Source: a virus (Duplodnaviria; Caudoviricetes). From it: a stretch of DNA of 64,000 nt. Every line of letters starts with the position of its first letter. Position 1 is the stretch's first letter. Made by a program: the position numbers and the translations under genes. Below the pieces are notes generated by a model. The model did not search any database, was not told where the DNA came from, and was given only the letters and a program-made list of their open reading frames with translations. Shown here one piece after another: positions 27,173-63,139 of this stretch. Location of the stretch: positions 18,229 through 82,228 of IMG/VR virus record IMGVR_UViG_3300032007_000060. One strand, given 5' to 3'.

Positions 27173-28363
27173 TTATTTTTCACTTATCCTTTCAAGAATA
27201 CTTTCACGAGTAACTGGTTTGTCATCTATCTCATCCAATCTTTTTTCAATAACATTCATACGAGATTCCATTTCCTTAACTTCAGACTCTTTCTCATGAT
27301 ACTTAACTTCCAACTCTTGATATTCTGGACTCTTAATATCAATATTATTAACATTTTTCTCAATAAGCAAACATGGGAAATGCTCAACATATTTTTTCAA
27401 AAGTACAGTTGGATCATCTAAAAAATAAGCTGCTCTTGTAGTTGACTTGGTTCTGCCTTGCAGCGCATCAATATCAGATTCACTCATACCAGATTTCCTG
27501 AGATGATTTGAATGAAATTTACGCATCATGTGACTGCGGAAACGATTAAAACCATCACTTGCTTGACCAAAGTTAAACTGGTCATTGTACCGGTAATATG
27601 CAACTGGAATGTAGTTTTCTTCTTTGTCAAACAATTTATCATCGTCTGATAAATTAATAAGTTTCAAGGTTCCGTCTTCAAGTGTTTCTACACGGTCTGT
27701 TAAAAGATATTCAACAATTTTATCAACTGCTTCTGGAGTGCAGAAAGTGTAATAATATTTATTGGTTTTTTCTCTTTTCAGTTTAAAAGTAGGAATAACA
27801 TTGTCTAAATCTTTTAAGATTAGTAATGCTTCGATTATATCGTTTTTTCTATGGAATGGGTAGGTTGCTTTTTTGAATTGACCTATAGTCATTTCGATTG
27901 TTTCTTTTCTTGCGCATCCGGTTGATATTTGGAATATTAATACTGCTTGGAACCATAGTGGTGCAACGTGTAATACTTGGCTTATTTCTTTGTGTGTTAA
28001 TAGTTCGTCGAAAGTTACTTCCCCGGGGATGTGGAATCCCCGTGGGTTAACTTTTGTTAAGTCTCCTATTTCGATTTCAAAGTATTTGTATACTGCAATT
28101 ACTTGTGTGAAATATGTTGATACTGTATTTTTTTTGTAGTTTTGTATTAGGTAGTTTCTGAATTGCAGTAGTCTTTTTTTTAGTGTTCTACGTTTCCATC
28201 TTACTCCTTTTTCTTCTTCTGTTTCTGCTTCGTCTATTAATTCTTCCATTGTTAAACCATGGAATTTTGAGTATTTGTTTATTGCTCTGGTGTAGATTTC
28301 ACGTGTTTTTGGATCATGGTTTTTTACTAGGAAGAATTCTTCGAGCAATTCTTCGTTTCTCAT
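27173..28363 (-). CDS. tyrosine recombinase/integrase A
   Basis: STGCARKE, KREKT, RSHMMRKFH, LQGR, terminal AAY catalytic Tyr. Confidence 0.9.
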   Translation of the reverse strand: MRNEELLEEFFLVKNHDPKTREIYTRAINKYSKFHGLTMEELIDEAETEEEKGVRWKRRTLKKRLLQFRNYLIQNYKKNTVSTYFTQVIAVYKYFEIEIGDLTKVNPRGFHIPGEVTFDELLTHKEISQVLHVAPLWFQAVLIFQISTGCARKETIEMTIGQFKKATYPFHRKNDIIEALLILKDLDNVIPTFKLKREKTNKYYYTFCTPEAVDKIVEYLLTDRVETLEDGTLKLINLSDDDKLFDKEENYIPVAYYRYNDQFNFGQASDGFNRFRSHMMRKFHSNHLRKSGMSESDIDALQGRTKSTTRAAYFLDDPTVLLKKYVEHFPCLLIEKNVNNIDIKSPEYQELEVKYHEKESEVKEMESRMNVIEKRLDEIDDKPVTRESILERISEK

Positions 28364-28984
28364 GTTTTATCTCTCTATGTGTTATATTTATATAAAGTAT
28401 TAGAGAGAGCATTTGATAAGTAATGTTTATCATATTTTTGGACATATGGTATATATATTATTGGGAATATGATAAACTATTGTATGTGCTTTTTTTGTTT
28501 ATCATATTCGTGGTAGTATAGTATAAATATTGTTCGAAATATGATTAACTTTGCTTCTCTCTAACGGTTGTATTTTTTGTGTTTTGAGAGATAAATAGGT
28601 AATTATACAGTGATGTACTTTTTTGTACATCATTGTTTATCATTAACAATTGTTATACTACGCATTAGAAATATATAACACATGATATAAAAACATTATG
28701 ATTTCAAAATCAACATCTTACCCGAAAGATCAACTTCCAACTTATCAACAATAACATGAGAAATACCATCCTTATCATGATACTCCACACTAAAATCATC
28801 AGGCAACTTATCAACAAAATCCTTTAAATCTCCAATAGTCAAAACTGTCATGTATTATATATTATAAAAATAATCCTAATAAACATGTTGAAAAACCATC
28901 ATGAGGATTAAAAAAAAAGTAAAGTTTAAGACCTAAATATACCTCATGATGAAAATTCAACTTTAAACCATCACCAAATAGAAT

Positions 28985-29009
28985 TCAACCTACGTACCAG
29001 GTAGGTTGA
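28985..29009. repeat. perfect 9-7-9 inverted repeat, att/recombinase core-site candidate
   Basis: TCAACCTAC GTACCAG GTAGGTTGA between the two recombinase genes. Confidence 0.45.
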
Positions 29010-29094
29010 CAATTAATACTATCCTCCTTAACCTATATAAATAAAGTGAGAGAGAGCATTTGAAAAGTATTCATAAACAATAAATAATAATATT

Positions 29095-30132
29095 ATGTAT
29101 CACAGTAAACTATTCACAAAATTTTGTAAAGACCGAAACGTTAAAAAAAGCACCAAAAAAGGTTATGAATCCGCATTAAAAAATTATACCCGATACCATA
29201 ACCAAACAATTGAAGAACTAATACAAGAAGCCCAAACTGATGAAAAAAACAAAATAATCCTAAAAGATAGAAAAATCAAAAAAAGATTACTCAAATACAG
29301 GACCTATTTATTCAGCAGCAACAAATCACCAAACACAATTAAAACATACTTCACTAGGGTAAAAACATTCTATGCTCATTTTGAAATTGAAATCCCAAAG
29401 TTACCTGATGCAAAATATGATAAAATCTATGAAACCAACTACATGGACCTACCTACAAAAGAAGATATCCGCAAAGTATTAGATTTGGTAACAGTAGACC
29501 TCCGCAGCATAATATTATTCATGTCATCTTCAGGAACTGCCAAGGCAGAAACATTAAGCATTACCATAGAACAATTCATCAATGGAACACGTGACTACCA
29601 CAATGGTGGAACCATCCAACAAATACTAGAAACATTATCAAAAAAGAATAATATAATTCCAACATTCTATTTGAAAAGAATCAAGACAGATAAATACTAT
29701 TACACTTTCTGTTCCCCTGAAGCTGCATCCGAAATCGTCAAATATCTTCAAGTCAGAAGTGACTTGAAACTTGATGATCCACTTTTCAACTTCACACCAG
29801 GAACATTATTAACTCGATTCCAAGAAATAAATGACCAACTCGGATGGGGATTTAAAGGCAGTTATAGGTTCTTTAGAAGTCATACCTTACGGAAATTTCA
29901 TGCAAGTAATATAGGATTATCTGCTGAATATATTGACAGTTTACAGGGCCGTAGTAAAAATGAGATACATGAAACATATATTAAAACCAATCCTGAAAAG
30001 TTAAAGGAAATCTACCAATCCGCAATGCATAATGTAATGATATATAACAAACCACGTGAAGAACATGTTACTCAAGAATTCACAATAGTGATTAATGTAT
30101 TCTTATCAGGTAAAGAGTATAATATAATTTAA
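29095..30132 (+). CDS. tyrosine recombinase B (candidate invertase)
   Basis: SSGTAKAE, KRIKT, RSHTLRKFH, LQGR, ETY; paralog of recombinase A; 1.7 kb from the shufflon. Confidence 0.85.
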   Translation: MYHSKLFTKFCKDRNVKKSTKKGYESALKNYTRYHNQTIEELIQEAQTDEKNKIILKDRKIKKRLLKYRTYLFSSNKSPNTIKTYFTRVKTFYAHFEIEIPKLPDAKYDKIYETNYMDLPTKEDIRKVLDLVTVDLRSIILFMSSSGTAKAETLSITIEQFINGTRDYHNGGTIQQILETLSKKNNIIPTFYLKRIKTDKYYYTFCSPEAASEIVKYLQVRSDLKLDDPLFNFTPGTLLTRFQEINDQLGWGFKGSYRFFRSHTLRKFHASNIGLSAEYIDSLQGRSKNEIHETYIKTNPEKLKEIYQSAMHNVMIYNKPREEHVTQEFTIVINVFLSGKEYNII

Positions 30133-30140
30133 AAAAAAAT

Positions 30141-30180
30141 AAGGGCCAACCATACGAACTTAATCGTACAGTTGACCCCT
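30141..30180 (+). terminator. stem-loop downstream of recombinase B
   Basis: AGGG.CAAC..TACGA-loop-TCGTA..GTTG.CCCT, next to an A-tract, between convergent genes. Confidence 0.4.
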
Positions 30181-30633
30181 AATTTATATAAATTCTTCAA
30201 AAAAAAAGAAATTGGATAGTTAAGAGATTACTCTCATTTTTTTTATGGAATAATAATATTATCGTTCTTTTTTAAATAAACTAGGTAATTTCATAGTTTC
30301 AAAAAAATATTTAGTTTTACATCTCGTATTCTTTTCGTATTCTCTACTACTTATAATACAGATGAATCCAAAAAGTTTCTTTTTTTTGTTGAATTTACAT
30401 TTATAATATTAGAAATTCATTTTATCTTATTGTAACTTTTTTAAATCGGCTTCTAGTAATGCAATTTCCTCTTCAATCTCAGCATGTTCCTTATCAGAAG
30501 TACATACAATTAATCTATGATTCAAAGCTTTGATTTGAGCACGAATTATATTTCGTTGAGAGGTTTTATTCAGTACTTTGGTTTCCATATCACTCAACAT
30601 AATATTTAATCTCCTTTCCTCTAAAACAATATT

Positions 30634-30822
30634 TTATTGAACATAGTTTTTATATACTCTTTCGGTTCTATCTGAAATATCATGCTTATGTCTTTCTATA
30701 TTTAATGCGACTTGAGCATCTAATACTTCATCAGTTAAACCTTCCTTTTCGTATTGTTTATTAATTTTTCTTTGTCTATTTCTAAATTGAACTCTTTTCA
30801 CAAATTTTGATAACTTGTTCAT
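30634..30822 (-). CDS. hypothetical protein in lysis region
   Basis: 62-aa ORF with GGAG RBS directly after the endolysin. Confidence 0.55.
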   Translation of the reverse strand: MNKLSKFVKRVQFRNRQRKINKQYEKEGLTDEVLDAQVALNIERHKHDISDRTERVYKNYVQ

Positions 30823-30847
30823 TTATTTTCCCTCCATAGAAAACTAA

Positions 30848-31732
30848 TTAACCATTATACAGATATGCTACACTTTTCTGACTAATACCATTAATATATC
30901 TTTTCTGTGTACTTTTTGTTCTGGTTTCAATATAACCACAATATGTGCCTGAGCCGCAGCTGTCTCCCAGACTGTTTAAGATTTTTAAATCATCACTAAC
31001 AGTTTTAATGACTTCATAATGACCCCATTGGTCACGATAGAGCAAATGGAAAAATACTGCTCCTTTACTTATCATGGTTTTGATTTTATCCCATGATAAT
31101 TCAGAGAAGTTGTACCAACTGATCTTAACATTTTTACTGTATTTTTTGTTGAACATTGCAACTGCAGTATTAATACCTTGATGTCCGGTGCCGTCACTGG
31201 TAGTTGAGGCCCATCCTGCGATTGTTTTTTCGGATACTTTTATTCCAGTTAGGCGATAGAATGCTTGTTGTAGACTGTTACATGCACAGTAGTATCCAGT
31301 GCATTGGCCCATTCCTGAACAACCATGTTCTGTTAAATATTCATGTAATTTAGGTATTTTTTCATATGAAACTTTTATTTTACTTGGATTTTTTCCATGT
31401 TGTTTTCTGTAAGAAGTTAATGTTTTTGCAATGTTTCGGTATGATGCTCTGTTGTATTTGTTAACTCCGCTTGAACCCATGACATAACCAGGTAAATTTT
31501 CTTTAGCAGTTTTGCTAATAACATCTTCCATGAAACGGCTGATATATTCATCATGACCGTAATCTGTACCGTTCTTTTTGATTAATGCTATAATGTCTTT
31601 GTAACTTTTTTTCTTTCCGTTAATGGTTATACTATCTGAATGTTTGAATGATTTGCCGGATTTAATTAATTTGTAGGCTACTCTGCATAATACATTCTTA
31701 CAACCTTTGTAGCTTAGTTCTTTTGTTGCCAT
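30848..31732 (-). CDS. endolysin: pseudomurein-binding repeat plus C39-like peptidase (PeiR-like)
   Basis: PMBR-like YRNIAKTLTSYRKQHGKNPSKIKV; catalytic YYCACNSLQQ, WGHYEVI, ILNSLG. Confidence 0.75.
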   Translation of the reverse strand: MATKELSYKGCKNVLCRVAYKLIKSGKSFKHSDSITINGKKKSYKDIIALIKKNGTDYGHDEYISRFMEDVISKTAKENLPGYVMGSSGVNKYNRASYRNIAKTLTSYRKQHGKNPSKIKVSYEKIPKLHEYLTEHGCSGMGQCTGYYCACNSLQQAFYRLTGIKVSEKTIAGWASTTSDGTGHQGINTAVAMFNKKYSKNVKISWYNFSELSWDKIKTMISKGAVFFHLLYRDQWGHYEVIKTVSDDLKILNSLGDSCGSGTYCGYIETRTKSTQKRYINGISQKSVAYLYNG

Positions 31733-31822
31733 AGTTTATCACATCCTTTTTTTAAATTTTTAAATATTATTTCTTCCAAAAAAAATGAATTTTCTATTTT
31801 TTATGTTTTATTCATGGAATCA

Positions 31823-32167
31823 TCAGCAAATACCTCCTCAATACAGATTAAAGTTAAAGGAAAAAAACTTGTTGAACAATTAAACAATAATAAAATAAAA
31901 GTATATGTTATAGATGGAACTCATGTTTGTATTGGAATATATGGTGATTCATTTACTTTAACTGGTCAAAATACCACGATTGGTACGGTAAGTAATCTAT
32001 ACAAACCATTAGCAAGACAAGTAGTACTTGCACATAACTCCATTAATTCAGATAAGTTGTTCTTTTATGAAACAGGTGAGATCATATATGTGAGACTTAC
32101 TGGAAGTGCTACAACTGGTACTGTGAATAGTGGATTTTATTGTCCTTTGTTAAATCCATTGTATTAA
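31823..32167 (+). other. silent tail-fibre tip cassette 1 (114 aa)
   Basis: starts in frame at TCAGCAA (SANTSSIQIKVKG); YKP motif; homologous to the C-terminus of 33536..34423. Confidence 0.85.
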
Positions 32168-32176
32168 CGTACATAT

Positions 32177-32512
32177 TCAGCAAGTACTCAGAATACACAG
32201 GTTAATGTTACTGGATGGAAAAGAGTAGTGTATTACAGTAACAATAATAATAATTTTGAAATTTGGACTGACGGAAGATTAGCCACATATATTGTGAATA
32301 CAAATAATTTCTCTGTATCTGCTAACGTTTCTCAAACATTAACTTCCTTTGATAATAAATATGCTCCAATATATGTAGTTGGAATAAAAACAATTAATAA
32401 TCATCAAAAAACTGCAGTAATAGTTGATAATCAAGTGTATATACAATCTACAGATACTGATGGTAATATGTGGGGTACTGCAACAGTACTATTAAAAAAG
32501 TCACTATATTAA
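32177..32512 (+). other. silent tail-fibre tip cassette 2 (111 aa)
   Basis: SASTQNTQVNVTGWK...KYAP...; in frame from TCAGCAA, no start codon at the site. Confidence 0.85.
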
Positions 32513-32521
32513 CAATATTAT

Positions 32522-32842
32522 TCAGCAAATAATTCATCTATCCAAGTAAAAGTAGGAGGATGGCAATCCCGAGGAACCATTGCAACTGGTGTCAAATTAT
32601 ATGTAAATGGAGAAACAAGAACTGCAATGGTAACGGGAGTTAATATATCTCTTTCTGCAGGTGCTGAGGAACAGACTATTGCTGAAATTCCATCTGCATA
32701 TGCTCCTATTGAAAGTACAGTTACAGGAACTGCATTTAATTATGAAAGAGTAATGGTTAGAACTAATAATCGAGCGGTTAATGTTTATAATTTTAATAAG
32801 AGTATTACAGGATTATCATTTACTATTCTATATCCTTATTAA
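32522..32842 (+). other. silent tail-fibre tip cassette 3 (106 aa)
   Basis: SANNSSIQVKVGGWQ...IPSAYAP...LYPY*. Confidence 0.85.
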
Positions 32843-32856
32843 AATAAAGAATCTCT

Positions 32857-33183
32857 TCAGCAAATACTGCATCCATTCAAATTAAAGCGGATGGATGGAG
32901 AACCATCTCTACTGCTAAAGGAACATTAGAAGTTAATGAAGCATTACAATTAGCTCATTTTACATGCAGTGAAAATGTTAGCTTCCCTACCACTTCATGG
33001 CAGTTTATTGAAAAAAATAATATCCCTTCACAATATAAACCATCAAGATACATAAATGATGTTAATTTTATAGGTAGTGGCAATCAGGTATATGCTGCGC
33101 AAATCACTAAACAAGGTCATGTAATGGGATACTCCAATTATGGGAACGCTCTTATTACAATGGATGTAACTTGGAAATATTAA
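32857..33183 (+). other. silent tail-fibre tip cassette 4 (108 aa, absent from ORF track)
   Basis: translated by hand: SANTASIQIKADGWR...IPSQYKP...MDVTWKY*. Confidence 0.85.
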
Positions 33184-33212
33184 AACTAAACTTCTATATT
33201 CTATTGAATTAT

Positions 33213-33539
33213 TCAGCAAATACCCACAACACAATACAAATCCTTGTAACTGGATTTAAACAAGTACAATCACTTGAAAATGATAAAATTAAAGTATACT
33301 TCAACGGAAGAACAGTATATATTGATATATGGGGAACATTCAACATGACAAGTGGAAGTGTGGGTACAATAACCACAATATCTAAAGAATATGCTCCAAA
33401 AGGTAAAGGAGGTGTTTATTCAAGTCCTTATCCTGCAGGTTCTGAAAAAGTATTTATCAATTCAGATGGTCAGATACAATATTATCCTGGTGGATCAAAC
33501 AAAAGCATTTATGCAACATTACAATATACAATAAGTTAA
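33213..33539 (+). other. silent tail-fibre tip cassette 5 (108 aa)
   Basis: SANTHNTIQILVTGFK...KEYAP...IYATLQYTIS*; stop overlaps the stop of the expressed gene. Confidence 0.85.
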
Positions 33540-34423
33540 TATTTCCATTGTAACGTAGCATAAACCCCCACATTAGTTATTGCAGATCCAGTATAACTAT
33601 ATCTAGATACTTTCCCATTCTCGTTGACTTGAACAATTGCTCTATTCCCTACAAATATATGACTAACAACGGGGGTAGCTGGTCGGTATCCTGCAGGCAC
33701 TACAAATCCTCCGAACTCTTCGGGGTTTGCAGTAATAATTGTTGATGCAATATGAATTCGGAGTTCACATAATTCATGATTATATGAGAAAGTATAATCA
33801 GAATTGTTTGTTGGTGTTTTCCAACCTTTAACATTAATTTGAGTTTGAGAATTATTTGCTGAAAACGTGGTTAATCCCCAAGTGTCTGCAGTATAACTCA
33901 ATTGAAAAGTACCATTAACACCAGTTGTTCCAGACTTCCAAGTCGAGTTATTCTTCAAGACAGGAACAGTCACACCAGTCACTGGTCGACCTGTGGCCCT
34001 GTTAGTAACTTTCACTGTAATATTAACACTACTGTCAATATTCACATTATATGCTGAAGCTGTGATTTGATAATCATATAAATTAATAATCTGACTTACC
34101 GGATGAGTGTGACTTGCTGGAGCATAAGCGGATAACTGTGAGACTTTTGCAAAATCAGAAGATACGAAACCGGATAGTTTAGTTGCATTAATTTCTTTAG
34201 ATTCATTAATATTCTCAAGTATTTCCTCTAATCTTTCCTCTGTGAAATATGTTTCATCAATTACTGCTAATTGTGCCTGCATTTCTGCTAATGTTTCAGC
34301 ATTTGCTACACTAATACTTCCGAGATTATCTCCGCTTGTTGAGATAACAGTTACTTCTGCTCCGATGATTCTTCCATCATCTTCGCTATATGTTCTTACA
34401 TTAAAATCAACCATTGTTACCAC
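33536..34423 (-). CDS. tail fibre / receptor-binding protein, expressed allele (187-aa constant part plus 108-aa variable tip)
   Basis: ASHTHP fibre motif, Ig-like segment, crossover at TTF-SANNSQTQINVKGWK, tip with PAGYRP. Confidence 0.85.
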   Translation of the reverse strand: MVTMVDFNVRTYSEDDGRIIGAEVTVISTSGDNLGSISVANAETLAEMQAQLAVIDETYFTEERLEEILENINESKEINATKLSGFVSSDFAKVSQLSAYAPASHTHPVSQIINLYDYQITASAYNVNIDSSVNITVKVTNRATGRPVTGVTVPVLKNNSTWKSGTTGVNGTFQLSYTADTWGLTTFSANNSQTQINVKGWKTPTNNSDYTFSYNHELCELRIHIASTIITANPEEFGGFVVPAGYRPATPVVSHIFVGNRAIVQVNENGKVSRYSYTGSAITNVGVYATLQWKY

Positions 34424-34425
34424 CT

Positions 34426-36852
34426 TTATACTTTGTATTCTATCCAGTTTTGTTTAATTCTTACTTGTTTATCCGTATTCTCTCCTCTTGTTGCAGTATA
34501 ACCAATAGCAATACCTACATCTTCAAGGTTTGGAGTATAGATTACTTCCAAAGTATCATTTGGGTTTAGTATTGTACTGTAATCATTATCATTGATTATG
34601 TCAAAGATTATTATTCCTTTTGTATAATCTACTGTGAAATCAGTATCCTCTACAAGTTCTATTTCATTATCAGTATCCTTATTCAGGATGACGCTACGGA
34701 TAGGGTCGACTGGTGAAACACGTAACGGTACTTGACGAGTTTCAAGTATTGAGTCACCAACTATGAAATCCTGTTTGAAATAATCAATAACTAATGGATT
34801 GTTAATATACTTACCAGTACTGCTATTGTATACTTGACCTATTTCTGATTGTACAAGGTCTTGTATGAATACTGGATTATAACTGAATGTTATACTTCCT
34901 ACTGGTAATTTAGCGATTACTGCTTCATCTAATACTATAGTGTCATTGGTATAATCTACATTATAATCGTACCATTCACCAAGGTTCCATGAGCCCTCGT
35001 CTCCTCTTGGTTGGAGTGAACATTCAAGGATTGGATATGCTGGACTATTCTTAAGATGGAATGGAGTGTATACTTTATTATCTTCTTCATCTAATGTCCA
35101 GAAGCTCATACCATGCTCTTCCTCAAGGTCATCTTCCCATGGTAATACATATACTCTTTGTTCCCTTAGTAATTCAATAGCGGAAGGATTATCAATGAGA
35201 TACTGGTAACGTACATCCAAATCATCATCAGTAATCTTATCCTCATCTAAACCAGTAATCCAAGTATACTCATCTAATTCCTCTGCAGTGATTACTATGA
35301 AATGGTCAATTACTTGTTTTTCCTGGATGACTTCAATCTTACAATCAGTACTTGGATCAATGTTGACTGGTGCGAAAATACGGCCCCAATGTGACGCTCC
35401 TAACATGGCACCAGTTTTTGGGTAATAGTATTTAGTACGCACATACATTTGTTTTGGTAATCCACTGGTGAAGCTTGCTGTAATCTCTTGTATTGCAGGG
35501 GATTTAGTGTTATTAGTAGTCCACATTTTCACTCGGATAAATAATGTTCTTGGGTAGTTTCCTTCACTATCTGGACTGAATGCTTTCTTATGATTAGTTA
35601 ATGTACTCCATGTTCGACCGTCTACAGATACTTCATATTGTAGTTTTCCAGGATAACTTGAAGAATCCCCACTATCAGTACAGCTCAATGTGACTTCACT
35701 AAATGGATTGGTGTGTATTGGTTTCAAGTATAACCAATGGTCTCCAGTTACATATGTTGATGAGTCTTGTCTGATATTTAATTGGAATGCAAAATCAGAT
35801 GGTGTTAAACGGCCGAGATAATAATCTACTTTTAAGTCATTACGTCCGTATCTTTCCCATGTTCTTCCATTATTGTTACTGAGGAATGCATCTCCACCCA
35901 TATACTTTGAGTTTTCACAGTTACGACCCCATCCACCAACACGAGGACATTTACTCCAATTACTTAATGGGGACATAAAGACAAGGGCATATGATTCTCC
36001 AGCTTCAACTCTTGGAGGTTGAGGGAACGCAATGCTTACGAAACCTGGTTCAACAATACTTGGGTCAAATGCAGTTTCAGCAATACAATTATAAGGGTCA
36101 CCATCAGGCCAAGCAATAGTTTCAGTTTCACCAGCAACAGGAGTATTAGTTTGAGTTTTAGGGTCCCAAGTCATTTTAGGAACAGTAATTTCTTTTGTTT
36201 TCCATAACTGAACAATCAATGGACTTCCCCAATTACCATTATTACTACCATTATTAGCAATATGTAACGCTACCGCTTCTAATTTACCTCCTTTCCCTGA
36301 AGGCACAGTGAATGTTTGAGCACGGCAAACACTTGGGATTCCTTCAAGTTTATTATCCATAATCCAATCACTACGAAGAGTATAGGTTTCATTTTTATCA
36401 AAACCCACATACCAATGAGTGTTGATTTGACCTTCCGCCCAATTCTTAACTGACTGGTCTAATGTACCTGGAGTATTCGGCAATACAACCTGATCCACTA
36501 TGGTACCGGTAGTGTCATCAACATAATGGTCAATAACTGCAGTGGATTTATCACGGTCAACTACAGTATCATCATCAAAAGTAATAGTCCTTGATTTATT
36601 GGTATCAGTATCAAAGATGATTTCATTCTCAGTTGTTTGCATAAATCCATAACTGACTGTAGCATCTATTGGTATTGGATTAAATCGTTTACGTACTGCT
36701 GGTGGAGTGAGATATTCCACTTCATCTAATTTTTGTTTTAAGTATTCATCGTTTTGACAAATCTGCCTGAATAATTCTACTGTAGGATACATTTGCTCGC
36801 TGAAGGATTGTATCCTATTCAAATTCCTATATCGTGGTTCACAATTAACCAT
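34426..36852 (-). CDS. virion tail/baseplate structural protein
   Basis: 808-aa beta-rich ORF within the tail operon. Confidence 0.55.
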   Translation of the reverse strand: MVNCEPRYRNLNRIQSFSEQMYPTVELFRQICQNDEYLKQKLDEVEYLTPPAVRKRFNPIPIDATVSYGFMQTTENEIIFDTDTNKSRTITFDDDTVVDRDKSTAVIDHYVDDTTGTIVDQVVLPNTPGTLDQSVKNWAEGQINTHWYVGFDKNETYTLRSDWIMDNKLEGIPSVCRAQTFTVPSGKGGKLEAVALHIANNGSNNGNWGSPLIVQLWKTKEITVPKMTWDPKTQTNTPVAGETETIAWPDGDPYNCIAETAFDPSIVEPGFVSIAFPQPPRVEAGESYALVFMSPLSNWSKCPRVGGWGRNCENSKYMGGDAFLSNNNGRTWERYGRNDLKVDYYLGRLTPSDFAFQLNIRQDSSTYVTGDHWLYLKPIHTNPFSEVTLSCTDSGDSSSYPGKLQYEVSVDGRTWSTLTNHKKAFSPDSEGNYPRTLFIRVKMWTTNNTKSPAIQEITASFTSGLPKQMYVRTKYYYPKTGAMLGASHWGRIFAPVNIDPSTDCKIEVIQEKQVIDHFIVITAEELDEYTWITGLDEDKITDDDLDVRYQYLIDNPSAIELLREQRVYVLPWEDDLEEEHGMSFWTLDEEDNKVYTPFHLKNSPAYPILECSLQPRGDEGSWNLGEWYDYNVDYTNDTIVLDEAVIAKLPVGSITFSYNPVFIQDLVQSEIGQVYNSSTGKYINNPLVIDYFKQDFIVGDSILETRQVPLRVSPVDPIRSVILNKDTDNEIELVEDTDFTVDYTKGIIIFDIINDNDYSTILNPNDTLEVIYTPNLEDVGIAIGYTATRGENTDKQVRIKQNWIEYKV

Positions 36853-36879
36853 AATTATACACCATTATATTATTTTTTT

Positions 36880-37542
36880 TTATTTTGTTTCTATGATAAT
36901 ATTCTCCAAATTCGGATTACTATTACGTGTAGTATGAATATATAAGTTTTTAGTTTGAATTGAATAATAATAAGAACCGACTGTTGATTCAACATCTTCA
37001 ATACTGGACACAACTCTCAAACCACTGTTAGTATCCTTCTCCGTGACACCTACAACCAGTGCAGGTTCCGCTATCCAGTATGTATAATTCTTATCTGCTA
37101 CTTTGTTGAAATCTTTCCTGATGCTGCCTGTTGTTATTTCAAAAGTATAAGTCACATCTACTTCACCTATACTATCTTCCAGGAATGAGCTTGTCATTTT
37201 CTCATAAATATCATGACTGATTAATACATCATCATTAGCAACACCAATTTCACAGGTACCTAATACTTCACCGGCCTCGAATGTGGCCTCAAGTATGATC
37301 CGTTTATTGTTCAAATCAACACTTGATGTAACTTGTTTTTTGACAGTTAAATTACCAAGATTTACATCTGATTTTTTCGGCCTCGCATTGGATGAACCTA
37401 ACATTATATATTTAATTGGTTCAAAATGTTGATTCACTGCTCGATTCATAAAAAAAGACTCACCTAATAGAGTAATAAGATTATTACCTTCAAGGATTAT
37501 CTTATCTTTTTGTTTAAAAATATAACTTCCTTTTATTTTCAT
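36880..37542 (-). CDS. baseplate/tail-collar-associated protein
   Basis: GNNLITLLGE...IKYIMLGSS...EIGV pattern typical of tail-fibre-proximal proteins. Confidence 0.5.
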   Translation of the reverse strand: MKIKGSYIFKQKDKIILEGNNLITLLGESFFMNRAVNQHFEPIKYIMLGSSNARPKKSDVNLGNLTVKKQVTSSVDLNNKRIILEATFEAGEVLGTCEIGVANDDVLISHDIYEKMTSSFLEDSIGEVDVTYTFEITTGSIRKDFNKVADKNYTYWIAEPALVVGVTEKDTNSGLRVVSSIEDVESTVGSYYYSIQTKNLYIHTTRNSNPNLENIIIETK

Positions 37543-37814
37543 AATAGTTTCACATCCTTACCTTTTATCTTTAAACAGGTATGAATTTCCAAATCATTCT
37601 TCTCAGACATTTCCTCTGTAGCTAAATTCACATGAATACGAGTTGATAAAGGCATTAATTTCTGTAATCTTTTCTGCAAACTATCTGCCGTTTCGGTTTG
37701 TATATTCGACGGAATATCAGAGGGGTTAAAACTGATTTCGTAATTGTTTGGTGTCCAATCTGGTTCATGTCTTATTATTTTACAATTAGGATTTCGTGGC
37801 AAAAATATCACCAA
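37539..37814 (-). CDS. hypothetical baseplate-region protein
   Basis: 91-aa ORF coupled to the downstream gene. Confidence 0.5.
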   Translation of the reverse strand: MVIFLPRNPNCKIIRHEPDWTPNNYEISFNPSDIPSNIQTETADSLQKRLQKLMPLSTRIHVNLATEEMSEKNDLEIHTCLKIKGKDVKLL

Positions 37815-37838
37815 TTATTTTTTTATTATTTTTTCTTG

Positions 37839-37949
37839 TTATTCTTCTTCTAATGCACATTTGTTTTTCACTAGGTAGCAGCATTTTTCTAAGTCATGGT
37901 CGCAGGTTCGTCTGTAACAGCAGCCGTCACAGAATTCTTCTTTTTTCAT
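37839..37949 (-). CDS. small Cys-rich peptide (36 aa, not in ORF track)
   Basis: GGAG RBS then MKKEEFCDGCCYRRTCDHDLEKCCYLVKNKCALEEE*. Confidence 0.5.
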   Translation of the reverse strand: MKKEEFCDGCCYRRTCDHDLEKCCYLVKNKCALEEE

Positions 37950-38056
37950 TTTAATCAACTCCATTGAGAATTTTTTTGATGAATTATTATAAGTATGAAT
38001 ATTTCTTGGGAAATGGTGTTGGTGATTTAAATATAAAAGCTGAATGTAACTTAGTA

Positions 38057-38515
38057 ACAGAAATATTCGCTCTTCAAGATTGTTGGGATTACGATACCAC
38101 TACCCGTAACCTTGCACCAAACAGTAGTCTAAGCCAAATTGACAGTTTCGCATTCACTAATACTGGTGATTGGGAAGTGGAATGGATAATGAGATTACCA
38201 TCTGGTAAAAGTAGGGTAGTATTATACAATCCAAGCAATGCCAATGTCTTTTTAGGAGTGGGAGCAAGTGAAAACAATAACCGTGTTATTTACTGGTATG
38301 GTCATGAAGATGGAGAAACTCCTTATTCATACAATACCGATTACACTATAAAAATCCAAAAAGATGGCAGTAACTTTAAAATATACTCACAAGGGTCATT
38401 ATTAAAGACTATGACTTATAGTGATTTACTGAATACTTCTACCATCAATTTAGGTTTAAGGAATTGGGGTAGTGGAACTGGAACAATCCGTAATGTAAAG
38501 ATTAAACCATTATAA
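38057..38515 (+). other. silent alternative C-terminal domain (152 aa) of the adhesin
   Basis: TEIFALQDC...GTIRNVKIKPL* parallels the adhesin's TEIFALQDC...SKIKNVKFKSL*; tail-to-tail stops at 38510-38515. Confidence 0.85.
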
Positions 38516-39022
38516 TGATTTGAATTTTACATTCTTGATTTTTGAAGTTCCACTTGCACCCCATCTCATCATAGACATACAGTAATCAGTATAATTATCA
38601 ATCCAAGACAATATGAATGAGCCTATTAAATTATCATCAACATAAACACTTATGCTTGTTTCATCTTTAACAAATTTGACAGTATGATAAGTTCCTGATG
38701 TGGCAGTAACCGATGGGAAACCTACACTTTGACTGCTATTGTTCTCCCTTTTACCGAAAGCCATTTGATTATTTCTTAACATATCCAAGTAAATCGCATA
38801 TTGTGGTTGTGTTGTACCACTACTGTATTGTGTCTTTGGCATAATGAAGAAACGATGTTCCCCAGTACTAGTGTTATCAGACCATATATCAAAACTTATT
38901 TCACATTTGCTTGGTAATGATTGGCTTAAACTGTTATCATAGATTGTTGAACCATTGGTGGAACTTCGAGTAACTTCGGCAGTATTATAGTAACTGCAAT
39001 CTTGAAGAGCGAATATTTCTGT
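38057..39022. repeat. perfect 26-bp inverted repeat bounding an invertible segment
   Basis: ACAGAAATATTCGCTCTTCAAGATTG at 38057-38082 (+) and 38997-39022 (-). Confidence 0.9.
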
Positions 39023-41698
39023 GAATATTATTCCGCAATTTGCTTTTATATATAAATCTCCTGTACCTTTTCCCAAGTAAGATACGCTTGCCTCTCCAGA
39101 ACTATCAGTAACATCAGAACCAAGACTTTCACCATTCACAACTTCAAAACTTACAGTTTCACCAACACAAGGATTACCATTAGAATCCAATACTTTCGCA
39201 GTAATAGTGGCAGTTTCACCTTTCATCATAATTGGCTTGTCAGATGAAACTGTGATGCTTGCAGGTGCCGGACGGTCACTTACAACAACATTAACAATAC
39301 TTGATTCAACATTATTATAAGTGGCATCTCCTTCATATACTACTTTATAACTGAATGTTCCTGCGACAGATGAAGTGATTGATTTGCTGAATGTTCCATC
39401 ATTACCAGTGGTTAATTGAGGGTCTATGAGTGTATTACCATCATATAATTTGATATTTACACTTCCTAATCCTGAACCGTTATATAATAATGCACCAGAT
39501 AAAGTGTAGGAGTCACCAGTGGTGACACTTGCACTGCTGGTGACTAAGCTGATTGTTGGTGTGCGTTTTACAATAGTTACATTTACATCAGAAGAGGTTG
39601 CACTATCATAAGTGCCGTCTCCTTCGTATACGGCCTTGTATGTTTTACTGGATACAATGGAAGCGGTTAATGTTTTACTGAATGTTCCATTGTCTGTTGT
39701 TACTGTGTGGAGTAATGTTTCACCGTCATAGATTTTTACATCAACATCATCCATTCCTGTTGTACCAGTTTTTAATGTTCCTGATAATGTGATTGTTTCT
39801 CCAAGGTCATAACTGGATTTATCTGCATTGAATGTTATTGTTGTTGGTTTCTTATTCACAGTTATGTTTTCAGTTGCATTATTACTGTAATAATCTTCAT
39901 CACCTTCAAATACTGCTTTAATGCTAACTGCTCCACTAATATTTGCAGTTATATCTTTACTGAAGTTTCCTGCATTGCCTTGTGTTGTCACAGTATCCAC
40001 CAACGTGTTATTCACATAAATTTTTATACTTTTACCTGTTAAAGCTGTGAGTTCATCATCAGTTAATGATCCTCTTATCTCGATTGTTTCCCCGATAGTG
40101 TAGGTTGATTTATCTGTAGATAATGTGAGTATTGTACTTGTTTTACCTGCTCCTTCACTAATCACTACATATAATGGATTAGTATTCTTATTATTGTTAA
40201 TCCAGTTACTGTTACTTACTAATGTGCTGCTGGTGTCATGTGTTAATGTTATATCTTGCAGGTTCAATGATTGGTTTTGATATACTCTGAAGAATTTTAA
40301 TCCTACACTATTATTGATTGTAGGGTTTCCGCAGCCGAGTATTGTGCAAGTGTAGGGTACGTTATAGATATGGTCTGTTGAATGTGTACCTGAAGTTAAT
40401 ACGATGAGGTTTTCTTCACCATTCACCATTGACAGGGCCTTATCTAATGTAGCGAATGGGTCATCAATTTTACCAGTATTATTATCATTTCCTGAAGTGG
40501 AAACATACCAGTTACCCGTATTACATCCACGGACAGTGACTTCAAGAGTTTCCGTTTCAAAAATAGTAGGTCCTTCATAGGCCTCGAATTTAAAAACATT
40601 AGGAGCATCATCACTGATTAAATCACTGGTTACTGTATATTGTTCTCCAGTATAATTTTCGACGAGGACTGTATCTTCTTCATCACCCAATAATGTGATT
40701 GTTACACTGTAATCCCCAGTTAATTTCTCAGCAAGACTATTCAAGAATTGGAAATTAAATATTACATTCTGATTCTTAACAGGTATTAAAGTATTAGCTG
40801 ATACAAAGAAGAATCTTCCATTATCCGATGTTAATTCGCATAATTTGTCTTTATGTTCCCATGGCATTGGTGTCCAGTCACCGACAAGGCCTGTTTCTTC
40901 ATCGTATGGGTGCATATGTTCATCGAACATCTTTAAGAGGTATTCTTCTCTGTTTATCATGTCGCTGAAGATGCCGTATTCTTTCCATATTTCTAATACG
41001 GGTAATGCTGTGTTATGTATTCTGAGATTGTATTCTATGATACGGTTCATGTAATGATAATCATCTTCACTTAACCTGTTGTTGTATGGTGGTTCGGTAT
41101 GTTCATAATCTTCAGTACTTTTATATGTTTTTCTTTGTATGCCGTTTAATGCTCCGATTTCATCTAAACTGTAATCATGGTCGAATTCATTTCCCAATTC
41201 CTCATCGTTTTCAGGGAATCCTTTTTCAATAATGATTTCATCATATGCTTCGGCTATAATCTTAAAAGTATCATCAGGAATTATAGGAATTTCAATCTCA
41301 CTATCCTCTACTTCATTTTCTTCCTCATTATCTTCAACATTCTCATCAACAATTGTATTTTCCTCACTACTATCATAAGAATAAATGAAAGAATTAACAT
41401 TATCCTCTTCTAAGTATTCTTCCATATAGAGCAGAGTATCATTTTTATAACATTTCACACTTTTCAACTGAGGATAATTCACAACAAAATTAATAACATA
41501 ATCATAAGGCACACTTTGCTCCTTCCAAATACAACAACGCTTCCTTAACCTCAAACTATCAGAAACATCACTAATACTTTGAAAAATACCCTTCAAAAGA
41601 TTATTAGTAACACTCTGAGATTTAAAGAAATTACTTGTCTCCGACTTATCAAAAAAATGAGGAAACATCTTAATTAAACTTTGCATACTCCTTTTCAT
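38510..41698 (-). CDS. baseplate-anchored adhesin/tail fibre with Ig-like repeats and ConA/LamG-like tip
   Basis: WYVSTSGNDNNTG..DDPFAT motif; 3-4 Ig-like repeats (TITLSGTL...VKIYDG...T..NGTFS...Y.GD..Y); C-terminal beta-sandwich. Confidence 0.8.
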   Translation of the reverse strand: MKRSMQSLIKMFPHFFDKSETSNFFKSQSVTNNLLKGIFQSISDVSDSLRLRKRCCIWKEQSVPYDYVINFVVNYPQLKSVKCYKNDTLLYMEEYLEEDNVNSFIYSYDSSEENTIVDENVEDNEEENEVEDSEIEIPIIPDDTFKIIAEAYDEIIIEKGFPENDEELGNEFDHDYSLDEIGALNGIQRKTYKSTEDYEHTEPPYNNRLSEDDYHYMNRIIEYNLRIHNTALPVLEIWKEYGIFSDMINREEYLLKMFDEHMHPYDEETGLVGDWTPMPWEHKDKLCELTSDNGRFFFVSANTLIPVKNQNVIFNFQFLNSLAEKLTGDYSVTITLLGDEEDTVLVENYTGEQYTVTSDLISDDAPNVFKFEAYEGPTIFETETLEVTVRGCNTGNWYVSTSGNDNNTGKIDDPFATLDKALSMVNGEENLIVLTSGTHSTDHIYNVPYTCTILGCGNPTINNSVGLKFFRVYQNQSLNLQDITLTHDTSSTLVSNSNWINNNKNTNPLYVVISEGAGKTSTILTLSTDKSTYTIGETIEIRGSLTDDELTALTGKSIKIYVNNTLVDTVTTQGNAGNFSKDITANISGAVSIKAVFEGDEDYYSNNATENITVNKKPTTITFNADKSSYDLGETITLSGTLKTGTTGMDDVDVKIYDGETLLHTVTTDNGTFSKTLTASIVSSKTYKAVYEGDGTYDSATSSDVNVTIVKRTPTISLVTSSASVTTGDSYTLSGALLYNGSGLGSVNIKLYDGNTLIDPQLTTGNDGTFSKSITSSVAGTFSYKVVYEGDATYNNVESSIVNVVVSDRPAPASITVSSDKPIMMKGETATITAKVLDSNGNPCVGETVSFEVVNGESLGSDVTDSSGEASVSYLGKGTGDLYIKANCGIIFTEIFALQDCSYYNTAEVTRSSTNGSTIYDNSLSQSLPSKCEISFDIWSDNTSTGEHRFFIMPKTQYSSGTTQPQYAIYLDMLRNNQMAFGKRENNSSQSVGFPSVTATSGTYHTVKFVKDETSISVYVDDNLIGSFILSWIDNYTDYCMSMMRWGASGTSKIKNVKFKSL

Positions 41699-41699
41699 A

Positions 41700-43282: not shown

Positions 43283-43284
43283 TT

Positions 43285-45113: not shown

Positions 45114-45130
45114 TCAAATAACCTCCTTTT

Positions 45131-46153: not shown

Positions 46154-46181
46154 TTTTAAGTCACATCCTCATCTCTTTTTT

Positions 46182-46742: not shown

Positions 46743-46746
46743 TTAT

Positions 46747-49140: not shown

Positions 49141-49162
49141 TTTTCATCACTTCTTCTTTTTT

Positions 49163-49348: not shown

Positions 49349-50075
49349 CTGGAAATAATTTTTCGTTAGCGGTTTCTGTTAATCCAAGTCTTTCTTCTAC
49401 TTTACCTGTAACGGCCCATTTTTCCATGAATGGGAATTTTTTCCAGAAGAATAATCTGTCATTATAATCTTGACTTGATTCTGGTAACCTTAATTGACTT
49501 GCCAAGAATCCATCTATTAGTTTTGCTTTTTCTTCACCTGCTATAGCGGTTATTTCTTTTGTCATTTTTTCAACCATTGCTTGTTCTTCAGGTGTTATTT
49601 CTTCTCCATCTTGTGCTTTTTTGAAAATGTCTTGTTCTTCTTGACTGTAATCTCTGAACAGGTCAATGTTCATTTCCATATAATCTGAGATTCTTGAACT
49701 ATCAACCGGCAGTATCTCGAAATTAAATTCGTAAACTTGACCTTGATATGTTAAATGAACTCTTAGCATTTTGTTACTTTCATCATTAAGTATGTCTAAG
49801 AATTCCTTTTCTGTGTTAATTATCCTTACAGTATTTTCCATTGCTTCAATTGTTTCGGTTGGTCTATATTTAGTAATGTATTTACGGTATTTCTGTAAGG
49901 TTTTCTTTAATAATGTGAATTCATCATCAGTTAATTCAACATAATCCATACACTTAAAAACCACAATCCTTTCCTCCTGAGTCAATGCTTCCAGAGGCAA
50001 TTCTTCACATTCTAGTGGGTATTGTGTTTTAAGTAAATGTTTTTCCATTTTTGCTGCTTTTTCATCAGGATTCAT
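49341..50075 (-). CDS. tail assembly chaperone
   Basis: position between tube and tape measure. Confidence 0.55.
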   Translation of the reverse strand: MNPDEKAAKMEKHLLKTQYPLECEELPLEALTQEERIVVFKCMDYVELTDDEFTLLKKTLQKYRKYITKYRPTETIEAMENTVRIINTEKEFLDILNDESNKMLRVHLTYQGQVYEFNFEILPVDSSRISDYMEMNIDLFRDYSQEEQDIFKKAQDGEEITPEEQAMVEKMTKEITAIAGEEKAKLIDGFLASQLRLPESSQDYNDRLFFWKKFPFMEKWAVTGKVEERLGLTETANEKLFPDG

Positions 50076-60343: not shown

Positions 60344-60357
60344 TAATAATTTCTCCT

Positions 60358-61695
60358 TTAGAAGTAAATTACACCTAATGGTGTTGCAGGTACAGTTTTT
60401 TCTCTTGGTCCGTATAGTCCGCCTCTCCACATGTCGGGGCAGTGGTCGTTTATTTTTAATGGTTTGTCTTCGCCTTTTTGTTGGGCTTTTTTATCCCAGC
60501 TGTAAGTTTGAGCTTGACTTATGCTGTTGGTGCAGTCTTGGTGTATGAAGAATCTGTTGTTGTTGAATAAGTCTTGAGTTTTTTTGATGTCTTCATATGT
60601 GTCTGGTGCGTAGGTTTTGACTTTGAGTTTTAATCGTGAGTCTTTTTGACAAGCGGTTTTAAGACTTGCTGCATCGTGAGGTAGGAATAATGTACTGTTC
60701 TCATTTAACTCGTACTTATCCTGTAATCCGATAATATCATCAACTCTTTCACTATCTGATTGTGTGACTCCAATATCTTCAGCATCATAGTAGGTTTCCT
60801 CAAGAAGATAATAGTTATTTCCCTGATTGATGTCTCTATGAATACCCATCACACCAAAAGTAGTGACTGTACTTACACCGTAGTCGCAGCAGATGTTAAT
60901 TTCATGAATTTGTTGATCTGCCGGAAATTCATTGTTAAGATAATTCCATGTGAAAACATTTTGAGTTGTGTCAAAACTATCATAGATTGCTCCTTCAGCA
61001 ATAACCCACTCACCCAATATATTCCTTTTATAGAATACCTCAGATTTCTGATTAACACGTTTCAATTCTTCCACATATTCCAATGGAAGATTAGGATTAT
61101 CATCTAAAAGGAACTTCCAAGTTTTAACAGTTCCTGCTTTTAATAAATCATGGTTGTTAATGTAATTAGTGAACAAATAATGATAAGGACTATCAGGGTT
61201 AGTGTTCCAGAACATTTTAGCTCCAACATCACTGCAACGACTGATGGCCATGTCTACCGCAGATTTTGGACATCTTGCTATCTCATCTGCTAACCATCCA
61301 CCAACACTCATACCTGCAATAACATCAACAGCTTTTTCATCATTGAAACCCATACAGTAACAGGTTTTACCATCAATAATTAATTCACCATCATGAGCAC
61401 GAAAATCATAAGGAATATCTTCAGTATTCATCATTGCCATTAAAGGTTTCAAAACATTACGCTTCAATGACTGTGAAGTTTTACCAGATATTAAAAATTC
61501 ATCAGAATTAGATTCAGCAAGAAAAGTCAACCACCTTGCATTACAGGTAATTGTCTTACCTGACCTTACTGATCCATAAGCAATATTAATCCAAGCATCA
61601 CTATTACGAAAGAAATCCACTGCAGTACGACCAAACTCACCATATTCAAAATAAGTTTTAGTCTCCTTCATCTTCTCGCCTATGCTTATCTTCAC
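60358..61695 (-). CDS. terminase large subunit
   Basis: YGSVRSGKT Walker A, WLADE Walker B, NTNPDSP, CCDYG and NDHCPD nuclease motifs. Confidence 0.95.
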   Translation of the reverse strand: MKISIGEKMKETKTYFEYGEFGRTAVDFFRNSDAWINIAYGSVRSGKTITCNARWLTFLAESNSDEFLISGKTSQSLKRNVLKPLMAMMNTEDIPYDFRAHDGELIIDGKTCYCMGFNDEKAVDVIAGMSVGGWLADEIARCPKSAVDMAISRCSDVGAKMFWNTNPDSPYHYLFTNYINNHDLLKAGTVKTWKFLLDDNPNLPLEYVEELKRVNQKSEVFYKRNILGEWVIAEGAIYDSFDTTQNVFTWNYLNNEFPADQQIHEINICCDYGVSTVTTFGVMGIHRDINQGNNYYLLEETYYDAEDIGVTQSDSERVDDIIGLQDKYELNENSTLFLPHDAASLKTACQKDSRLKLKVKTYAPDTYEDIKKTQDLFNNNRFFIHQDCTNSISQAQTYSWDKKAQQKGEDKPLKINDHCPDMWRGGLYGPREKTVPATPLGVIYF

Positions 61696-62071
61696 TTGAT
61701 TTTATAGCATCAGCAAGACCAGATAAACCTTTATGAGTAACATCAGCTTCAATTTTTTCACGTTTACCATACATGTTCGGATGTCTTCTTTCCAACATCC
61801 ATGCTGCAGCTTGCCAATGTTCCATACTTGCTGAAACAATGACCTGTTCAAAGTTATGTAACGCTTTATTTTTCGCTGTTTCAACACAATCTTTGAACCT
61901 CACATATTTCGTTCTAGTCTTTGCTTCTTTTGCTCTATTAATCCAGTTATAATAAGTTTTTTCATCAATTCCAACATAACCACAAGCCCCAAGAATACTA
62001 CTTCCATTTTCTATAGCTTCACAAAACTTAGCTTGCAATTCTGGGGTCAATTTCTGATTATATCTTGCCAT
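61658..62071 (-). CDS. terminase small subunit
   Basis: HTH (SILGACGYVGIDEKTYYNW), WQAAAWMLERRHP, directly upstream of TerL. Confidence 0.8.
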   Translation of the reverse strand: MARYNQKLTPELQAKFCEAIENGSSILGACGYVGIDEKTYYNWINRAKEAKTRTKYVRFKDCVETAKNKALHNFEQVIVSASMEHWQAAAWMLERRHPNMYGKREKIEADVTHKGLSGLADAIKSSEDKHRREDEGD

Positions 62072-62125
62072 ACTGGAACCTCCTTTTTTTATTTACTGGA
62101 AACACTGGATACAATAAAAAAAATA

Positions 62126-63139
62126 TTACGAAATTTTATCAAGAATATTATACCTGATATGCTCTGCAATAGCTTTCATCAGGTTGGGTGGTACACTATT
62201 TCCAATTCTTTCTTTGATTTGATTATCCGAACCTATCCACTTGAAAGTGTTAGGAGGATAAGTGAAAGATTGAAGTATACTGAGTTCCTGCACATCAAGT
62301 TCTCTGTTTTCTTTGTAATGGACCAATTGTGGTTTTCGTGTGATTGTTGGACATGGTTTATTGGGTCTTACCCTAAGACATTTGTAATGGAGAATGTCTC
62401 TGGGATGATTAAAGGTAATATGAAAATTATCTTCAAAGACATATTAACCCAATTAAAAGCATCAGGTTATGATGTTCGTGCAAAATTAATGAATGCACAA
62501 TATTATAATTGTCCTACAAGTAGGCAAAGGATGATTTTTATTGGAGTTAGGAAGGATTTAGGCATACCAGCAAGTCATCCTAAACCAACAAGTAAACCAA
62601 TCACAGTTCGTGAAGCAATTGGACATTTGGAAAATAAGATTAAACCTAATAATTCAAGTATTACAAGATATGCACATTACTTAAGACCAGGTCAAAAATC
62701 CGGTGACTTACCATATTTTCCAACAAAGACTCGGGATATTTATAGGGTATAACCCTCTGAGTAATCTAATATACTCATGATATAATTGATTTTTTGTATC
62801 GCAGAAATCTCGGGCTCCTGCGGTACTGAACCCTTGACATGGTGGTGAACCATCAAACAGATCAAGTTCTCCAGGTATTAGTCCTGTGGTTTCCAGTACT
62901 TTTTCAACACTTAACTTATGAATGTCACCATAATATACTGGTGTTTGTGGGAAGTTTCTTTGATATGTTGCTACTGCATGTGTGTCCATTTCTACAGCTA
63001 ATAATACTTTGTATCCTGCTAAATAGTAACCGTAACTTGAACCTCCGCATCCGCTGAATGTTGAAATTACTGTTGGTGGTTTATGAGTAGTCCTCTTTTG
63101 GGAGTTCATATCCACACCTTGGACAAGTAATGGTTTCAA
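62126..63139 (-). CDS. dcm: C5 cytosine DNA methyltransferase with an inverted central segment (OFF configuration)
   Basis: motifs I-IV (FSGCGG, EMD, GSPPCQGFS) on - at 62744-63139; motifs VI/VIII (FVMENV, TSRQRMIFIG) on + at 62375-62749; PCPTIT and motif X (RIGNSVPP) on - at 62126-62368. Confidence 0.9.
62365..62752. repeat. inversion junctions with a 7-bp inverted core
   Basis: TACCCTA at 62369-62375 (+) and 62743-62749 (-); hairpins GTCTTA-CCC-TAAGAC (62365-62379) and TTATA-GGG-TATAA (62740-62752). Confidence 0.85.

Follow-up and report, generated by a model that had tools for sequence, protein, structure and literature searches.

A 64,000-nucleotide stretch of the viral record IMGVR_UViG_3300032007_000060 (IMG/VR; Duplodnaviria, Caudoviricetes) was analysed in this study. 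This stretch, hereafter the window, is the last 64 kb of the single 82,228-bp record (positions 18,229 to 82,228), and coordinates below refer to it unless stated otherwise. Three coding sequences of this ~82-kb tailed virus of rumen Methanobrevibacter, namely a fibre gene, an adhesin gene and a DNA methyltransferase gene, are likely to contain site-specific inversion switches that operate independently of each other. The initial annotation of the window had already proposed three invertible coding loci. These were found at the expected places and exceed what chance would produce, and alternative states of each of them occur in public rumen data (for the adhesin, in homologous sister loci). 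The possibility that the loci do not vary, which that annotation had named as fatal to its model, did not materialise at any of the three, since alternative states exist in near-identical genomes. All of the comparison data are metagenome assemblies.

In the mechanism that we propose, opposed copies of a 10-bp core (TCAGCAAATA) would recombine at the fibre locus and fuse one of six head modules of ~110 aa to a constant N-terminal part; the same inversions would also reshuffle the silent cassettes. At the adhesin locus, the 9-bp sequence CTTGGGAAA and a 26-bp inner repeat would serve to place one of two C-terminal tips onto a 1062-aa immunoglobulin (Ig)-repeat adhesin. In the methylase gene, a 381-bp flip between 7-bp cores would break or restore the reading frame. 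We infer that virus-encoded tyrosine recombinases catalyse the inversions. For the fibre locus the strongest candidate is its conserved neighbour, a protein termed int2, acting by itself or together with a partner. The switches may hedge bets on receptor use and on methylation-sensitive versus methylation-dependent restriction.

A multiple-inversion system in the fibre gene

The expressed fibre (receptor-binding) protein gene encodes 295 aa on the minus strand (33536-34423) and follows the baseplate genes. At codon ~188 it contains the expression-site core TCAGCAAATA (33853-33862), from which the current tip, "A", extends over 33536-33862 on the minus strand. Five silent tip cassettes lie on the plus strand at 31823-33539, each headed by a core of the form TCAGCAA(A/G)TA in the same frame: c1 (31823-32167), c2 (32177-32512), c3 (32522-32842), c4 (32857-33183) and c5 (33213-33539). 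The exact core occurs five times in the window, against 0.35 occurrences expected, and all five lie within 31823-33862; the core of c2, at 32177, is a sixth site with one mismatch. The window thereby has six fibre crossover sites, one on the minus and five on the plus strand. The initial annotation had described two of the three loci as having 7-bp cores, which holds for the methylase described below; the fibre core is 10 bp long.

Read in frame from the core, each of the six tips stays open, over 106-114 aa; pairwise identity among them is only 25-39%. In the model of the fibre protein, the predicted local distance difference test (pLDDT) score exceeds 90 over residues 120-295, and the C-terminal ~103 residues match the head domains of the receptor-binding proteins of lactococcal phages p2 and TP901-1 (root-mean-square deviation 3.3 A, target-normalised template modelling score 0.45-0.60, E about 1e-3). 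This match provides modest evidence that the swapped module is a receptor-binding head.

The cores evolve in concert within a genome. The same variant, TCAGCAAATA, is used in the window and in the relatives L100 and L101, while L002 has TCAACAAATA at all five of its fibre sites and L003 has the synonymous TCAGCGAATA at all four. The presence of one core variant at every site of a genome indicates a constraint acting on the DNA, not on the protein. In the fibre region, the window, L100 and L101 share 93-97% identity. L100 and L101, which have seven sites each, contain cassette blocks that are flipped or in another order and that end at the cores. Written in gene orientation, the order is N-3-X-X-A-5'-2'-1' in L100 and N-A-5'-4'-3'-2'-1' in the window, two inversions apart; L100 and L101 differ by a 687-bp inverted block that also ends on cores. 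At the protein level, P0009 and P0018 bear c3-like and c5-like tips, respectively, on a fibre N-part that is at least 91% identical (BLASTP, N-terminal two-thirds).

A rearranged junction was also observed in run X3, which comes from another sample and study and shows zero mismatches to the window over c1-c2. One X3 contig links position 32536 with position 33849 of the opposite strand by way of 15 letters common to both, and this joint is the left product of an inversion between c3 and the expression site. A second X3 contig spans from 31823 (c1 core) to 32531 (c3 core). Based on the concerted cores, the rearranged relatives, the tip-swapped proteins and the X3 junction, the fibre locus is regarded as an active multiple-inversion system.

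A DNA methyltransferase gene interrupted by inversion

The third locus is an orphan C5-DNA methyltransferase gene within a row of ParB, methylase and terminase genes. It is present in three pieces. The N-part (62750-63139, minus strand) contains motifs I-IV and matches PF00145 positions 2-103 (E 2.4e-23). The invertible middle segment of 381 bp (62369-62749, plus strand) contains motifs VI-VIII and the target-recognition region (PF00145 positions 103-204). The C-part (62126-62368, minus strand) contains motifs IX-X and joins in frame after in-silico inversion. The cores are TACCCTA at 62369-62375 and TAGGGTA at 62743-62749, each of 7 bp inside the 13-bp repeat GGGTNNTACCCTA, which occurs twice in the window (62363, plus; 62743, minus) against 0.01 occurrences expected. 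As the window stands, the N-part runs into a stop 11 codons past the junction (open reading frame (ORF) 62708-63139), and in-silico inversion of 62369-62749 produces a single 337-aa frame with all motifs in order. Because the middle segment is inverted and its flip restores the frame, the methylase is OFF in the window as judged from its sequence.

In the OFF state, the two sites are near-perfect palindromes around CCC, GTCTTA-CCC-TAAGAC at 62363-62379 and TTATA-CCC-TATAA at 62739-62755; in the ON state the half-sites are swapped. Dyad symmetry of this kind is what a recombinase core site would be expected to show.

Both states exist in nature, as revealed by comparison between samples. L005 (OFF) shares 99.85-99.9% identity with L006 (ON orientation) across 8 kb of flanking DNA, and L104 is ON and intact with both cores present. 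An identical ON protein, P0138, is encoded on 15 contigs, ten of which, from at least nine samples, were examined. Every one of the ten shows the segment in the orientation opposite to that of the window, with alignments that overlap only inside the 13-bp repeat, which places the breakpoint there; the flanks of six of them match those of the window at 98-99.5% identity. The OFF state was sampled in the window, L005, L123 and L124. The cluster of N-parts at 90% identity has 75 members, comprising full-length proteins of 327-337 aa and truncated forms with an OFF-specific tail; P0137, P0143, P0146 and P0149 are truncated products with the tail of the window. An NCBI protein from a Methanobrevibacter sp. 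assembly, also in this cluster, is the middle ORF of the OFF state. Meanwhile, the ON protein P0144 differs from the re-inverted window gene at three of 337 residues and matches positions 2-322 of the 324 positions of PF00145 with 199.7 bits.

More distant relatives (85-88% amino-acid identity) are without the repeat and are all ON. The repeat arose by mostly synonymous changes that are clustered in two 13-bp patches; in comparison with L007, all four changes at the junction between the N-part and the middle segment are synonymous. The dN/dS ratio is 0.13 between two lineages that were both sampled OFF, indicating that the gene is maintained and not decaying. With both arms of the repeat inside one gene and both orientations found in nature, the locus qualifies, in comparisons between samples, as an intragenic inverton of the premature-stop type.

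A second cassette array in the adhesin gene

The adhesin locus is a second shufflon-like array, with two tips in the window. The expressed adhesin (38510-41698, minus strand; 1062 aa) contains Big_3_5 and Big_1 repeats, and a start-less alternative leader and tip (38005-38515, plus strand) lies silent and tail to tail with it. The outer core CTTGGGAAA (9 bp) is located at 38005-38013 on the plus strand and at 39069-39077 on the minus strand, its only two occurrences in the window. The inner core is a 26-bp perfect inverted repeat, in frame, at 38057-38082 and 38997-39022, within an imperfect repeat of ~100 bp (75-80%). Both tips are open from the core. A search for longer proteins containing the silent tip of the window yielded only P0121 of another virus, whose expressed C-terminus is 77% identical to that tip.

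The homologous adhesin loci of sister genomes belong to the same 90% protein cluster, and two pairs of them differ by inversion. L121 and L100 are related by a clean 999-bp inversion (99.8% identical, flanks 97-99% identical), and L122 and L101 by an inversion of ~1.1 kb (99.8% identical, flanks 99.7%), for which the alignment reaches the end of the L122 contig. Proteins P0123 and P0134 bear, at 99.4% identity, tips that are silent in L100 and L101. The crossover took place at the inner repeat in the former pair and at CTTGGGAAA in the latter, so the single crossover sequence per locus assumed in the initial annotation has to be amended for the adhesin, which has two crossover points. In the window, L100, L121, L101 and L001, each cassette of leader and tip has CTTGGGAAA at its head, with two sites in the window and L101, three in L001, and four each in L100 and L121. 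The figure of 24 phenotypes given in that annotation (six fibre tips, two adhesin tips and two methylation states) is arithmetic only, and relatives carry seven fibre tips and up to four adhesin leader sites.

For the adhesin of the window itself, neither the predicted inverted junction nor the 26-bp core alone was found in IMG/VR; as the core itself is absent, that database holds no near-identical strain and the junction search is uninformative. Coverage of 38015-39016 is close to nil in runs X4 and X8. In X3, a joint between 38005 and 39128 starts at the outer core, and its far end lies ~50 nt from the expected place; it is ambiguous.

Two further features of the locus were observed. In L100 (2000-6800) it is enlarged to ~3.9 kb; four CTTGGGAAA sites accompany no fewer than seven tip ORFs, which form nested convergent pairs, an arrangement that permits far more states than the two of the window. 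In addition, the fibre core TCAGCAAATA (33853-33862) and the start of the inner adhesin core, ACAGAAATAT (38057-38066), differ mainly by one inserted C, and the inner adhesin repeats of relatives begin with similar TCWGAAAYATA strings. This likeness could be due to chance in AT-rich DNA or to a shared recognition element.

Candidate recombinases

The two tyrosine recombinases previously annotated in the window are confirmed, and a third lies outside it. The first, int1 (27173-28363, minus strand; 396 aa), matches the phrog_1 integrases (E 1.8e-17) and falls below the cut-off for PF00589. In alignment A1 it has Arg, Lys, His, Arg and Tyr at the catalytic positions, with "LQGR" replacing "LGH". 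It differs among relatives and may serve as an integrase or an invertase. The second, int2 (29095-30132, plus strand; 345 aa), was recognised as a tyrosine-recombinase-fold protein by an AlphaFold model (pLDDT 82) and Foldseek, which matched the model to XerA, Cre, IntI and XerH (E 2e-6 to 1e-3) and thereby to the two-domain Xer/Cre-like fold. Orthologues of int2 that are 67-86% identical occur in L001-L003, G004 and G005. In every relative examined int2 adjoins the fibre cassette array, and the partner recombinase varies. In an alignment of only eight sequences, the His, Arg, Lys and Tyr columns are invariant, and His III is Arg ("LQGR"). The third recombinase (552 aa; positions 8180-9838 of the genome) matches PF00589 with 51 bits and has no orthologue in the relatives examined. 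Sequence searches of PDB with int1 and int2 gave nothing useful.

No match to the serine recombinase family PF00239 was found at E<=1 in the 82-kb genome. Nor was there a match at E<=1 to the reverse transcriptase family PF00078 in the same 82 kb, which upholds the earlier view that the system is inversion-based and not a diversity-generating retroelement.

Direct and inverted repeats of 34-55 nt lie at 28389-28550 and 29036-29069, in the 730-bp gap between the divergent recombinase genes, and could have a regulatory function, act as arm-type binding sites or represent attP. Over its last ~33 residues (27173-27270), int1 is nearly identical to the tail of the recombinase at L002:18184-19548, to which it is otherwise only ~26% identical. 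The pattern suggests that the C-terminus of int1 is a mosaic, exchangeable module.

Alternative explanations

Several observations weigh against three recombinase-driven switches. A contig of the source run, X1, covers the whole fibre array in the reference order, with no opposite-strand joint listed, and the adhesin pair of the window was not observed in its alternative state. At L006:4372-4383 (IMG/VR 3300021288_000002), one extra base beside the TACCCTA core puts a stop codon into the junction. Possible sources of this base are a genuine mutation, a scar left by recombination and an assembly error. In all four aligned int2 proteins (window, L001, L002 and L003), the box-I Arg is Lys, a substitution that cripples many tyrosine recombinases, as established for Cre, Flp and lambda Int. 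Finally, the inner adhesin repeats differ between cassette pairs, and homology-driven recombination could therefore carry out the inner step at this locus. Taken more widely, host homologous recombination (RadA) or an integrase of relaxed specificity might act on any inverted homology, above all at the adhesin, where the repeats are long (26 bp perfect within ~100 bp; 45-72 bp in relatives) and crossovers occur at two different repeat places. There is a precedent in the homology-type inversion by the archaeal integrase of pTN3 (reviewed in PMC8371274). We consider this explanation unlikely, because the fibre (10 bp) and methylase (7 bp) cores are too short for homologous recombination and the 9-bp CTTGGGAAA is conserved at every cassette head although its surroundings diverge. 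Since only metagenome assemblies were compared, the alternative arrangements might also be thought artefacts or chimeras. That is extremely improbable, as the same junctions recur in independent JGI, ENA and Logan assemblies from many samples and the breakpoints are always on the cores.

The methylase inversion might be non-adaptive, that is, a recurrent accidental rearrangement at a short repeat which inactivates a dispensable gene. The perfect core of only 7 bp, the OFF state of the window, L005, L123 and L124, and the stop at the junction in L006 would be in line with this. However, all three gene pieces remain open under strong purifying selection across OFF lineages (omega 0.13), the repeat was built from clustered, mostly synonymous changes and has dyad-symmetric flanks, and either state is frequently seen in sequences from many samples that are 98% or more identical; accidental inversion is therefore improbable. 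The initial annotation had joined the three loci into one co-regulated programme coupling host range to methylation, in which a shared recombinase or control would link receptor choice to methylation and give non-random haplotypes. All three loci do reside in one genome with tyrosine recombinases. An int2 orthologue (85%) is the only recombinase found shared at high identity between the window and G002, both of which are methylase-switching lineages, and the inner adhesin core, (A)CAGAAATAT, bears a loose resemblance to the fibre core TCAGCAAATA. Nevertheless, such a programme is not supported and has a low probability, because the three cores TCAGCAAATA, CTTGGGAAA and GGGTNNTACCCTA are unrelated and because relatives separate int2 and the fibre from the methylase repeat: G004 and G005, two complete relatives, have retained int2 and a homologue of the fibre gene, whereas the repeat is missing and the methylase is fixed ON. 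We also think it quite unlikely that the virus has a phasevarion tied to host-range switching, in which a relaxed-specificity recombinase set (int2 and a partner) flips all loci and particles leave with non-random combinations of tip and methylation. If it did, each receptor type would be paired with the restriction landscape found in the host strain carrying that receptor. Independence of the three switches is the most likely reading.

Genome, host and neighbouring features

A stretch of 143 nt recurs, with a single mismatch, at both ends of the 82,228-bp record; this points to a complete genome of ~82.1 kb, circularly permuted or terminally redundant. The window has a G+C content of ~30-35%. 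Nearly all of its genes are on the minus strand, and the tail and head module occupies 34-62 kb, with genes for baseplate J, the tape measure protein and the terminase subunits. Goat and cattle assemblies of Methanobrevibacter contain the closest relatives of the large terminase (72-84% identity). The sequence itself occurs in bovine gut metagenome runs of several studies, and on these grounds we conclude that the host is rumen Methanobrevibacter. Few viruses of methanogens have been isolated so far, and megablast of 30000-50000 against the phage collection gave no match. In L114-L119, which are Methanobrevibacter contigs with related terminases, no ParB, methylase or small-terminase homologue was detectable within the fetched 3-kb flanks, which is uninformative with regard to the switch.

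Some features outside the three loci were also recorded. Before the window, at 11.2-15.4 kb of the genome (~2.7-7 kb from the start of the window), several consecutive ORFs on the minus strand resemble Cas proteins at their N-termini; by eye they are Cas6-, Cas5- and Cas7-like, and a PP-loop protein with "SGGKDS" adjoins them. Just beyond the recombinase pair, a 365-aa protein (24683-25780, minus strand), conserved in L100 and L101, has the N-terminal domain of Type I restriction enzyme R (HSDR_N, PD-(D/E)XK-like; E 5e-16). AT-rich intergenic motifs at 31751-31815, 36865-36890 and 37815-37835 recur before late genes, and probably represent a promoter or terminator motif. Logan contigs join these motifs to each other at the very high depth of 306-514, which indicates that the motif is common to many elements in rumen samples. 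Short "skip" joints at 31808/37815 and similar places were rejected as rearrangements, being AT-rich intergenic repeats.

Relation to known inversion systems and significance

The fibre and adhesin loci are shufflon-like and belong to known kinds of system. At the fibre locus there are six sites with one core in both orientations, alternative C-termini in frame, and near-identical genomes rearranged with breakpoints at the cores. In the shufflon of R64/IncI1 (Rci recombinase, sfx sites, PilV tips), short-core sites likewise occur in both orientations and provide in-frame alternative C-termini of an adhesive protein, any opposed pair inverts and reshuffles the silent cassettes, and a tyrosine recombinase gene adjoins the array. 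The present system differs in being that of an archaeal virus, with a tail-fibre head instead of a pilus adhesin and unrelated cores, and int2 has no detectable sequence relationship to Rci and has Lys for the box-I Arg. Gin of phage Mu, Cin of P1 and Min of p15B, the last with six crossover sites, resemble it in that a phage-encoded inversion swaps the C-terminal receptor-binding part of a fibre and changes host range. In contrast, these enzymes are serine invertases, and the methanogen virus genome is without a resolvase-family protein.

Among archaeal tailed viruses, the haloarchaeal myoviruses phiCh1 and phiH1 also switch fibre variants with a tyrosine recombinase, Int1, which inverts tail-fibre genes (PMC6210493). 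There, two whole fibre genes flank the recombinase gene, crossover takes place in repeat clusters and two states result, whereas the methanogen virus has tip-only cassettes in an array of six to seven, a single 10-bp core and a recombinase outside the invertible DNA.

Of the three switches, that of the methyltransferase is the most original. Chanin et al. (bioRxiv 10.1101/2023.03.11.532203) described premature-stop intragenic invertons, which similarly have both arms in one gene and one truncating orientation. That study dealt with cellular genomes and contains only one archaeal intragenic inverton, and the word "methyltransferase" is absent from its main text; here, the switched gene is the virus's own DNA methyltransferase. 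Programmed inversion is also known to alter cellular Type II restriction-modification genes (PMC9881135), and phase-variable restriction-modification (Type I hsdS, Type II) has in common with our case that recombinase-driven inversion changes the methylation phenotype of a population. Those systems swap specificity modules of a cellular defence, in contrast to the ON/OFF switching of an orphan viral C5-methylase with no silent cassette. In the literature searched, neither a shufflon in an archaeal virus nor inversions in methanogen viruses are reported. The MSTV1 paper (PMC11375127) describes no inversion system, and a virus-encoded example is not mentioned in the consulted passages of a 2026 review of prokaryotic methyltransferases. 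To our knowledge and from this literature, no DNA methyltransferase encoded by a virus has been described before as being switched by intragenic inversion; both of its states are common in nature.

Genetic tools for methanogens might be developed from the three short recombination cores and from the candidate enzymes, three archaeal tyrosine recombinases. The methylase switch allows testing of the hypothesis that viruses hedge their escape from methylation-sensitive versus methylation-dependent restriction. More generally, the switches bear on how methanogen viruses handle the strain-level diversity of rumen and gut Methanobrevibacter.

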